This document shows, piece by piece, positions 1,312-2,659 of a stretch of 64,000 nt of DNA (position 1 is the first letter of the stretch; every line of letters begins with the position of its first letter). The notes below the pieces were generated by a model that worked only from the letters and a program-made list of their open reading frames with translations, was not told the origin of the DNA and searched no databases. Origin of the DNA: a phage; assembly GCA_014816185.1 (NCBI GenBank), contig GCA_014816185.1_4095.1. One strand, 5' to 3'. A program made the position numbers and the translations under genes.

Positions 1312-1548
1312 ATGAAACTATCTTTTATACGATTAGCTGAATTCTTCGGTACTGATGTAATTACTTTACAACAAATTGCAGATAATACTTCATTAAGTAC
1401 ACAAGAAGTACTTGACTTAGATGTAATTCAGTGCGATAATACTTCCATCGATTTCAAAGAAGGTCTTGTCGAAAAAGATAAGATTAAAGCTAAGATTAAT
1501 GGTGCTGGACGGGTTCAGTACTGGAAAGGAGTATTAAGTAATGTTTGA
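1312..1548 (+). CDS. hypothetical protein
   Basis: 78-aa ORF; stop overlaps start of next gene. Confidence 0.45.
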   Translation: MKLSFIRLAEFFGTDVITLQQIADNTSLSTQEVLDLDVIQCDNTSIDFKEGLVEKDKIKAKINGAGRVQYWKGVLSNV

Positions 1549-2659
1549 ACAGTATTATTTAAATGAAGATGGTGAAAAAGTTTATTTTCATGAAGAACTT
1601 GGTATGCGTTTTGAATGGATGAAGCCTGAAGATATAAAAAGGGTTTCAAAAGGACTCACTGCTAAGGATCATGTTGATGACATAGAAGCAAAATTAAAAA
1701 ACAAAGATATTGACAATATTACTATTATTGGATTATCAGTTAAATCATCACGTGAGTTTGGTAAAAACGGAAATAGTAATAACAATTTACTGATTATGTA
1801 TAATGGGGTATTGTATGATAATTATAAAATAACTGGTTTAAAAACAAAGCTTGAAAAAATAACAAACAATAAATTCAAGCCATCATTTACCTATACAGAT
1901 GAAAATTATTATTACTATGTAACCAAATTGGGTTCTCTCGAGGAAAGAGGATGCTATATATATGAAAATGAACATTTAGACAATGGGATAATGTCATATA
2001 TTAAATTCACATATTCCGATGGATTTACACAACCACGAAGAATAAATGATATAATTACAAAAACATCAATGAACGTTAGATATTTTATAACACCTGAAAT
2101 GCGTGAAACAATTGCTAACACACGCTGTAATGAACTAGGATATACATTAAAAGAAGTTTACAAGAAATCAAATGGTCGTTATTATGTAAAATATATATGT
2201 GATAAAGGACACGAGTGTAATCAAGACTATTATGCGTTTACTAGTAAACAAGCACAAAAGTGTGGATGCTGTTCCCAATTAGAAACACACTCATTTGGTC
2301 ATAATGATTGTAAAGAGTTTTTGAGAGGAATGTTTGTTACTGAAAGAGAGAAAACATTTCCTGATTTAAAAAATAAATCAAAACTTCCATATGATTTTTA
2401 TATTCGTGATATTAATACGTTATTTGAATATGATGGTAGTAATCACTTTGAAGAACGTGAATCAGGATGGGGAAACGGACTTATGAGGAAAAAACACGAT
2501 AAAATCAAAACAGAATACGCAATAAAAAATGGATATAACTTCATTCGTATTGCGTATTATGAAGACCATATTGGAGCATTGAAATCTTTCCTTAAACTCA
2601 TTGAAGAGAATCCAGGAAAGCAAATCGTGCAGATCTATGGTGAAGTACAAATTATCTAA
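1541..2659 (+). CDS. putative nuclease with C-terminal DUF559/Vsr-like PD-(D/E)XK motif (possible free-standing homing endonuclease)
   Basis: 372-aa ORF; C-terminus PYDFYIRD..LFEYDGSNHFE..KHDKIK..GYNFIRI fits the D..E.DG..H / D..K / G...R motif of the DUF559 nuclease fold; Cys cluster CDKGHEC..CGCC upstream. Confidence 0.45.
   Translation: MFEQYYLNEDGEKVYFHEELGMRFEWMKPEDIKRVSKGLTAKDHVDDIEAKLKNKDIDNITIIGLSVKSSREFGKNGNSNNNLLIMYNGVLYDNYKITGLKTKLEKITNNKFKPSFTYTDENYYYYVTKLGSLEERGCYIYENEHLDNGIMSYIKFTYSDGFTQPRRINDIITKTSMNVRYFITPEMRETIANTRCNELGYTLKEVYKKSNGRYYVKYICDKGHECNQDYYAFTSKQAQKCGCCSQLETHSFGHNDCKEFLRGMFVTEREKTFPDLKNKSKLPYDFYIRDINTLFEYDGSNHFEERESGWGNGLMRKKHDKIKTEYAIKNGYNFIRIAYYEDHIGALKSFLKLIEENPGKQIVQIYGEVQII

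Follow-up and report, generated by a model that had tools for sequence, protein, structure and literature searches.

The EDxHD family of homing endonucleases is defined by a Vsr-like fold in which E, D, H and D residues are conserved (Taylor et al. 2011, PMC3239194). A free-standing Vsr-like member is Hef, from phage U5, a relative of T4 (PMC3239194). Some phage homing endonucleases bind DNA through repeated zinc fingers of the CapR, DUF723 and DUF4379 types, and the CapR cysteines are needed for DNA binding (Barth et al. 2023; PMC8096241; PMC10448857). Composite terminator/promoter (PeSL) motifs mediate modular cassette shuffling in T4-like phages (PMC2839356, PMC4122927). Here we have investigated open reading frame (ORF) 372, located at positions 1541-2659 of a phage DNA stretch of 64,000 nt (NCBI GenBank assembly GCA_014816185.1, contig GCA_014816185.1_4095.1), the whole of which is referred to as the window. 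ORF372 is probably a free-standing homing endonuclease gene, and we infer cleavage and homing by its product. The combination of a bipartite nuclease with an intact predicted Vsr-like active site, an insertion-deletion (indel) exact to the ORF, allelic replacement by other nucleases between conserved flanks, occurrence at several loci and apparently decaying copies constitutes the usual signature of a free-standing homing endonuclease gene. Most likely, as judged from the predicted structure, the product is a Vsr-like (EDxHD-type) homing endonuclease of known kind with predicted CapR-type zinc modules.

The window is ~98% identical to Escherichia phages vB_EcoM_G17, Sharanji and JP4, which are Asteriusvirus jumbo phages of the 121Q/PBECO4 group, and the genome is therefore not of the T4 type that an earlier, sequence-only reading had taken as its setting. 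The same reading had placed the gene next to denV, which in fact lies ~1 kb upstream, with three ORFs between the two. In the three public genomes that carry ORF372 (G17, Sharanji and JP4) the protein is 99.7-100% identical, and it is labelled 'hypothetical protein' in G17 and Sharanji and, through automated PHROG transfer, 'homing endonuclease' in JP4. A literature search combining Asteriusvirus and homing endonuclease returned nothing specific to the ORF372 locus.

Results

ORF372 occupies a variable slot downstream of ORF78

The gene, the edges of the slot and the predicted translation signal are as follows.

1541-2659, + strand: ORF372, putative free-standing homing endonuclease gene; single frame, 372 amino acids (aa) plus stop, ATG start
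1312-1548, + strand: ORF78, small conserved helical protein of phrog_34150, 78 codons
1524-1531, + strand: Shine-Dalgarno-like GAAAGGAG inside the end of ORF78, preceding the ATG of ORF372 by 9 nt, read from the sequence
2728-3498, + strand: P-loop/AAA ATPase gene (phrog_1250), the conserved right-flank gene

ORF78 was found in 29 phage records, and the AAA ATPase gene on the right flank has an identity of 95% or more in 24. ORF78 forms the 5' edge of the variable nuclease slot in every related phage examined. Three states are observed between the ORF78 region and the ATPase gene: empty, ORF78 alone, and ORF78 followed by an occupant. In the empty state, represented by SP27 and UE-S1, the ATPase gene comes immediately after ORF119 and both ORF78 and ORF372 are absent. 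ORF78 alone is observed in four Salmonella Asteriusviruses, SD-15_S21 and its relatives. In SD-15_S21, the sole SD phage compared at the nucleotide level, the indel corresponds exactly to window positions 1542-2659, that is to ORF372 itself, between flanks that are 96.6% and 90.6% identical, and ORF78 extends to 88 codons. The other three SD phages match ORF78 at 97% coverage (76 of 78 aa), as does SD-15_S21, and no ORF372 homologue is reported in them. In 121Q, exactly positions 1537-2662 are replaced by other genes.

The slot after ORF78 is a hot spot in which about a dozen occupant types, unrelated or very divergent and mostly nucleases of at least two classes, were encountered (loci L001-L027), and the flanking proteins in close relatives remain at least 94% identical to those of the window despite the changing occupants. 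Vsr-like alleles comprise the window type and those of Ec-M-J, TH47, SHEFM2K, EJP2 and the metagenomic P0002, P0008, P0013, P0015 and P0016; outside the close group formed by the window, Ec-M-J and P0002, these are 12-38% identical in pairwise comparison. The second nuclease class, phrog_681 'endonuclease', occupies the slot in 121Q/UB, PBECO4, A4 and Ecwhy_1, and in E9.1 as two ORFs. Assignment of the C-terminal domain of 121Q gp221 and PBECO4 gp306 as T5orf172-like was considered and dropped, Pfam giving no support even at E ≤ 10. Unrelated ORFs fill the slot in Turkey3 and CRJP21. The occupant in WPEC5 (L021:3230-4729) is fragmented into several short ORFs and the A4-type gene in E9.1 (L023:3230-5193) is split in two; these broken copies are possibly decaying endonuclease genes, or sequencing errors.

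Along the nuclease, identity to the window protein differs, being undetectable by tblastn over aa 34-262, 38-60% over aa 263-319 and 81-94% over aa 320-372. Relatives of ORF372 are also present at other loci, as a second copy in A4, in RaK2 and Muenster, and in P0004, where the context is unrelated; the RaK2 and Muenster copies are annotated there as 'homing endonuclease EDxHD'. In a divergent phage, where identity of the flanking proteins is 56-78%, the ORF78-linked position holds a copy that is 72% identical. No paralogues of ORF372 were detected by tblastn within the 64-kb window. The guanine-plus-cytosine (GC) content of ORF372 is atypically low, 29.3% against 35.5% for the window, which corresponds to the 2nd percentile of equal-sized windows.

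A metagenomic relative carries a second Vsr-like nuclease with three zinc modules (L012:3552-4529, - strand), 34% identical to ORF372. Situated between the ORF372 homologue and the ATPase gene and oriented oppositely, it forms a small nuclease island.

The C-terminal domain is predicted to adopt a Vsr-like fold with a conserved active site

The catalytic core is the following.

2327-2575, + strand: predicted Vsr-like PD-(D/E)XK catalytic core, aa 263-345, with E270, D285, E296, D298, H302, D320, K323 and R336

The motif residues are arranged as LPYD285F, E296-Y-D298-G299-S-N-H302, D320-K-I-K323 and G331-YNFI-R336. Conservation was assessed in an alignment of 100 homologues, for which 23 full-length relatives and 87 more from the domain profile were collected. 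Five of the positions, D285, E296, G299, H302 and D320, never vary, and conservation reaches 90% or more at D298, K323 and R336; because it is conserved across this set, the active-site pattern is not a chance match. An AlphaFold2 model built from the same alignment has a mean predicted local distance difference test (pLDDT) score of 78, exceeding 90 over most of aa 270-372, and Foldseek ranked Vsr first for this model, with a probability of 0.97-0.98. On the predicted structure, the C-terminal domain can be assigned with high confidence to the Vsr-like PD-(D/E)XK fold.

Family matches obtained transitively, through the 100 homologues, were to DUF2726 (28), DUF559 (6, best E 1e-4) and the Vsr-like PvuRts1I_N (4), and the TH47 allele matches DUF559 at E 0.063. 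ORF372 itself matches phrog_559 (7e-24) and phrog_9084 'homing endonuclease' (4e-16), and PHROG families named homing, intron-encoded or HNH endonuclease are matched at 7e-24 to 2e-10. No T5orf172 match was obtained in Pfam searches with the full protein or the isolated domain. Searching with the isolated nuclease domain retrieved 6172 representative clusters at E ≤ 1e-3, mostly as the C-terminal part of proteins of 230-500 aa; the predicted Vsr-like nuclease-domain family is large and mostly unannotated.

A predicted zinc module and a putative degenerate copy precede the nuclease domain

The remainder of the protein is divided as follows.

1541-1639, + strand: N-terminal motif MFEQYYLNEDGEKVYFHEELGMRFEWMKPEDIK, aa 1-33, structure predicted with low confidence
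1901-2089, + strand: putative degenerate cysteine-less zinc-module copy (helix plus beta strands), aa 121-183, from alignment to Cys-containing modules
2093-2281, + strand: predicted CapR/DUF4379-type treble-clef zinc module, aa 185-247, with C220, C226 (or H224), C241 and C243/C244
2498-2656, + strand: C-terminal segment, aa 320-372, 74-94% identical among otherwise highly divergent Vsr-like alleles at the locus

The Cys-rich segment (C220, C226, C241, C243 and C244) sits in a module of one helix and three strands, and C241 and C244 are at least 90% conserved among the 100 homologues. In the equivalent region, these gave 42 matches to DUF4379, 21 to DUF723 and 12 to CapR; the CapR match of ORF372 itself is weak (E 0.24, aa 188-243, 12.1 bits versus a cut-off of 24.2). 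By analogy with the described modules, aa 185-247 presumably constitute a DNA-recognition module. The predicted secondary structure of aa 121-183 mirrors that of aa 185-234, and as judged from the alignment and the model this stretch is probably a zinc module whose cysteines have been lost. No NUMOD or helix-turn-helix (HTH) match was found in ORF372 in the Pfam scan.

The N-terminal motif is also present on other alleles, being 84% identical in PBECO4 gp306 (L008:2715-2812), which has a different C-terminal domain, and 85% identical in P0004, which lies in an unrelated genomic context. At the other end of the protein, codon differences between the window and TH47 over the C-terminal 52 codons are 22 synonymous and 9 non-synonymous; this predominance of synonymous change indicates purifying selection and thus a selected protein feature. 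The near-identical 3' end was also considered as a mere result of recent recombination, an explanation rejected in view of the many synonymous differences, with only the SHEFM2K pair appearing recently exchanged. Strict locus specificity of the tail was likewise rejected: P0004, in its unrelated context, retains 60% identity there, and the tail is therefore a trait of the subfamily. Two tail variants, ending in KLIEENPGKQIVQIYGEVQII and LVLKHQDKQIVQIYGEVQILDKK, are spread independently of overall similarity, a distribution that suggests recombination within the gene.

The sequence-only reading had taken 1541-2659 for a DUF559/Vsr-like nuclease gene in which a D..E.DG..H / D..K / G...R pattern follows a Cys-rich segment, and for a possible homing endonuclease gene. 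The ORF is real, as indicated by its single 372-aa frame, its ATG, the AAAGGAG ribosome-binding site 9 nt before the ATG and its conservation in G17, Sharanji and JP4. Both the pattern, whose catalytic residues D285, E296, G299, H302 and D320 are the invariant positions given above, and the Cys-rich segment were recovered, and the loss of catalytic residues that would have contradicted this reading was not observed. With regard to the family, the Vsr-like part holds for the predicted fold and the motif but not for the Pfam hidden Markov models (HMMs), as DUF559 (PF04480) did not match ORF372 at E ≤ 1 with the full protein or at E ≤ 10 with the isolated domain, and Vsr (PF03852) did not match even at E ≤ 10 on the isolated domain. 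The free-standing homing endonuclease proposal is strengthened by the ORF-exact indel in SD-15_S21, nuclease replacement between near-identical flanks and low GC content, and comparison of related phages found ORF372 absent or replaced at the locus in several.

ORF78 and ORF372 are bounded by terminator/promoter repeats

The bounding repeats are the following.

1245-1315, + strand: upstream composite terminator/promoter repeat copy, 33-bp perfect core at 1253-1285
2660-2731, + strand: downstream terminator/promoter repeat copy, 33-bp perfect core at 2667-2699

The two copies are ~71 bp in length, 89% identical and in direct orientation. Within the 64-kb window, their 33-bp perfect core is present at 1253 and at 2667 and nowhere else, 0 occurrences being expected. 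The upstream copy comprises a UUCG-loop hairpin, GGGTTGAC-TTCG-GTCAGCCC, followed by a T-run, with a -35 box TTGACT (1256) within the hairpin stem and a -10 box TATAAT ending at 1285; the promoter scan gave 11 of 12 with an extended TG, and the G17 record annotates a terminator at this position. The upstream copy is thus a likely promoter for ORF78 and ORF372, and the downstream copy is the predicted terminator of ORF372 and sigma-70-type promoter of the AAA ATPase gene. In SP27, which has one intergenic repeat, alignment shows this to be a chimera of both window copies.

The TGA stop of ORF78 (1546-1548) lies within the first codons of ORF372, in the overlap sequence ATGTTTGA. This start/stop overlap, together with the Shine-Dalgarno-like site inside the end of ORF78, suggests that ORF372 is probably translationally coupled to ORF78.

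The composite terminator-hairpin/promoter repeat GGGTTGACTTCGGTCAGCCCTTTTTGCTATAAT borders successive gene cassettes and is also present upstream of denV in 121Q (L001:2504-2568). A degenerate copy without promoter follows denV at ~559-578.

Neighbouring genes

One upstream gene is listed as context only, being outside the element.

32-547, + strand: denV-like pyrimidine-dimer glycosylase gene (Pfam Pyr_excise 4e-15, phrog_1183 2e-58)

The denV region is variable among the relatives. In SD-15_S21 (L020:956-1735), a deletion equivalent to window 437-870 joins the N-terminal part of denV to ORF119 in one 259-aa ORF, and in PBECO4 and SHEFM2K denV is shortened (143-144 aa) and ORF64 is absent. 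JP4, otherwise ~99% identical to the window here, has an additional HNH endonuclease gene upstream of denV (L002:1098-1511) and an additional 203-aa ORF between ORF119 and ORF78 (L002:2827-3438).

Directly downstream of the ATPase gene, 3566-6346 contains eight tandem genes for mutually related small hydrophobic proteins (104-141 aa) with basic C-termini, an array of paralogous putative membrane proteins whose copy number varies among relatives. A 220-aa ORF (6389-7051) occupies the most AT-rich part of the first 8 kb (GC 24-26%). Two adjoining large ORFs of 411 and 375 aa (7528-9903, - strand) encode Gly/Ser/Thr-rich, repeat-like sequence, and genes near these are annotated 'regulator of chromosome condensation' (RCC1-like) in related records.

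Discussion

A mechanism can be proposed in which ORF372 would be co-transcribed with ORF78 from the composite terminator/promoter at 1253-1285. Its product would be a modular protein consisting of the N-terminal motif, helix/beta modules, the last of which is of the CapR/DUF4379 zinc-finger type, and the C-terminal Vsr-like domain. The zinc finger and other modules presumably recognise a long DNA site, and the Vsr-like domain, with the E-D-x-H-D set (E270, D285, D298, H302 and D320) plus K323, would make a Mg2+-dependent cut. On co-infection with a phage that does not carry ORF372, the matching locus of that phage would be cut by the enzyme. Candidate targets are the junction of the ORF78 end and terminator, as found in the SD phages of Salmonella, or a rival allele. 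Recombinational repair from the carrier genome would then copy ORF372 in. For ORF372, metal-dependent cleavage, site specificity, target identity and homing are what we infer.

Several observations weigh against the homing endonuclease interpretation. Pfam and NCBIfam nuclease models matched neither the whole protein nor the isolated C-terminal domain, and searches of PDB sequences with phmmer and with profiles from 17- and 52-sequence alignments yielded nothing significant, 3R3P and Vsr not being retrieved at E ≤ 10 and AbaSI and 3HRL appearing at E ~1. Comparison of the domain profile with E. coli Vsr (MG1655 sequence) by hhalign gave an E of 0.13, which is not significant, in the expected register (LPYDF with RPDF, EYDG with FTHG, HDKIK with RDRRD). 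As these sequence searches are not significant, the family assignment depends on the predicted structure and the transitive hits. Furthermore, no target site could be identified for ORF372, and the right flank of the empty site in SP27 is 99.8% identical to the window, so that immunity polymorphisms are not evident there. The joint loss of ORF78 and ORF372 in SP27 and UE-S1 would be explained equally well by nuclease-free recombination between the direct repeats, and long-term retention at a single locus under purifying selection would also be compatible with a nuclease of benefit to the phage.

The last point corresponds to an explanation that we consider improbable, in which ORF372 is a domesticated nuclease acting against competing phages or satellites, or in degradation of host DNA, and the hypervariable DNA-binding part reflects an arms race. 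Purifying selection on the C-terminal part, retention of the ORF78-linked position in the divergent relative (72% identical, compared with 56% for the AAA ATPase) and restriction of the extreme allelic diversity to aa 34-319 between conserved ends are all consistent with such a role, and there are documented cases of homing-endonuclease domains being co-opted in conflicts between phages and satellites (PMC8096241, PMC10448857). ORF372 is, however, dispensable: the SD phages, SP27 and UE-S1 lack it, and Turkey3 and CRJP21 have unrelated genes in its place; the broken copies in WPEC5 and E9.1 are in keeping with a selfish element in decay; and no defence-related partner was identified beside ORF372, the PADLOC defence library not having been searched. 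A function as a Vsr-type DNA-repair endonuclease working with the nearby denV is hardly credible. Vsr is the best structural match and a denV homologue is located ~1 kb upstream, yet no Vsr HMM matches ORF372, a long N-terminal region with zinc modules is characteristic of homing endonucleases rather than of Vsr, ORF372 is sporadic and allelically replaced among near-identical phages, and denV is present irrespective of the presence of ORF372.

It is also very unlikely that ORF372 is a passive passenger of PeSL-like cassette shuffling via the repeated intergenic elements, with a nuclease that is inactive or irrelevant to its spread. The 33-bp perfect (~71-bp, 89% identical) direct repeats that bound ORF78 and ORF372, the chimeric single copy in SP27 and the shuffling of modules by similar composite motifs in T4-like phages (PMC2839356, PMC4122927) would agree with this. 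The right boundary of both the SD indel and the 121Q replacement abuts the downstream repeat, but the left boundary is the ORF372 start inside ORF78 and not a repeat; repeat recombination therefore cannot explain the left boundary of the SD-type indel or the 121Q-type replacement. In addition, the predicted catalytic residues are all intact, the protein is under purifying selection and nearly all occupants of the slot are nucleases.

A homing endonuclease thus remains the preferred interpretation of ORF372. An extension of it, which we offer as speculation and judge unlikely as a whole, concerns the organisation of the locus. In the Vsr-like alleles, a hypervariable part, the DNA-binding region included, is followed by 53 constant C-terminal residues and in some alleles is also preceded by 33 constant N-terminal ones. 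The junction of the ORF78 end and terminator might be a dedicated landing pad for at least a dozen interchanging nuclease genes; the hypervariable part might reflect switching of specificity by recombination, in an arms race of rival alleles that target each other's genomes; and the HTH-like ORF78 might be a partner or regulator of the downstream nuclease.

At the level of annotation, the gain is a routine one, from 'hypothetical protein' to a putative free-standing homing endonuclease of the Vsr-like (EDxHD) type in which CapR-type zinc modules are predicted. The locus, with its empty sites, ORF-exact indel, many alleles and apparently decaying copies, is a compact natural system for homing-endonuclease turnover, and it is available in sequenced, culturable coliphages. 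The domain combination bridges separately described families, I-Bth0305I and the ICP1 T5orf172/CapR endonucleases.

Comparison with known systems

The nearest characterised relatives of ORF372 are I-Bth0305I and, by the literature, Hef of U5. I-Bth0305I (EDxHD, PDB 3R3P) shares the Vsr-like fold, predicted in ORF372, and the E...D...x...H...D motif, the ORF372 counterparts being E270, D285, (D298), H302 and D320. The gene for I-Bth0305I resides within a recA group I intron, and the enzyme uses NUMOD/HTH motifs for DNA binding, whereas ORF372 is free-standing, has predicted CapR/DUF4379-type zinc modules and shows no significant sequence similarity to I-Bth0305I. ORF372 also possesses an extra, highly conserved C-terminal helix and hairpin (aa 343-372). 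Hef of U5, compared by description only, is similarly a free-standing gene in an intergenic position of a large myovirus, at which relatives have other homing endonuclease genes in its place.

E. coli Vsr (PDB 1CW0, 1VSR) is a single-domain mismatch-repair enzyme with 8-9% identity and no HMM match to ORF372, which in contrast has a 260-aa, presumably DNA-binding N-terminal region and a patchy distribution. The Vsr-like domains DUF559 (PF04480), DUF2726 and PvuRts1I-N match some of the homologues, and ORF372 itself matches none of them. The flanking of ORF78 and ORF372 by repeated terminator-hairpin/promoter motifs resembles PeSL cassettes, and a role in shuffling here would be by analogy.

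The ICP1 T5orf172 endonucleases and the satellite repressor CapR (PMC8096241, PMC10448857) have the type of repeated CapR/DUF723/DUF4379 zinc-finger module that is predicted in ORF372, and share with it domain shuffling and a position at genetic-exchange boundaries between close phages. In 121Q, UB and PBECO4 the slot holds alleles of the phrog_681 class, of which 121Q gp221 has three CapR domains (2.6e-23). The two systems differ in the nuclease domain, which is T5orf172/GIY-YIG-like in the ICP1 enzymes and predicted to be Vsr-like in ORF372.

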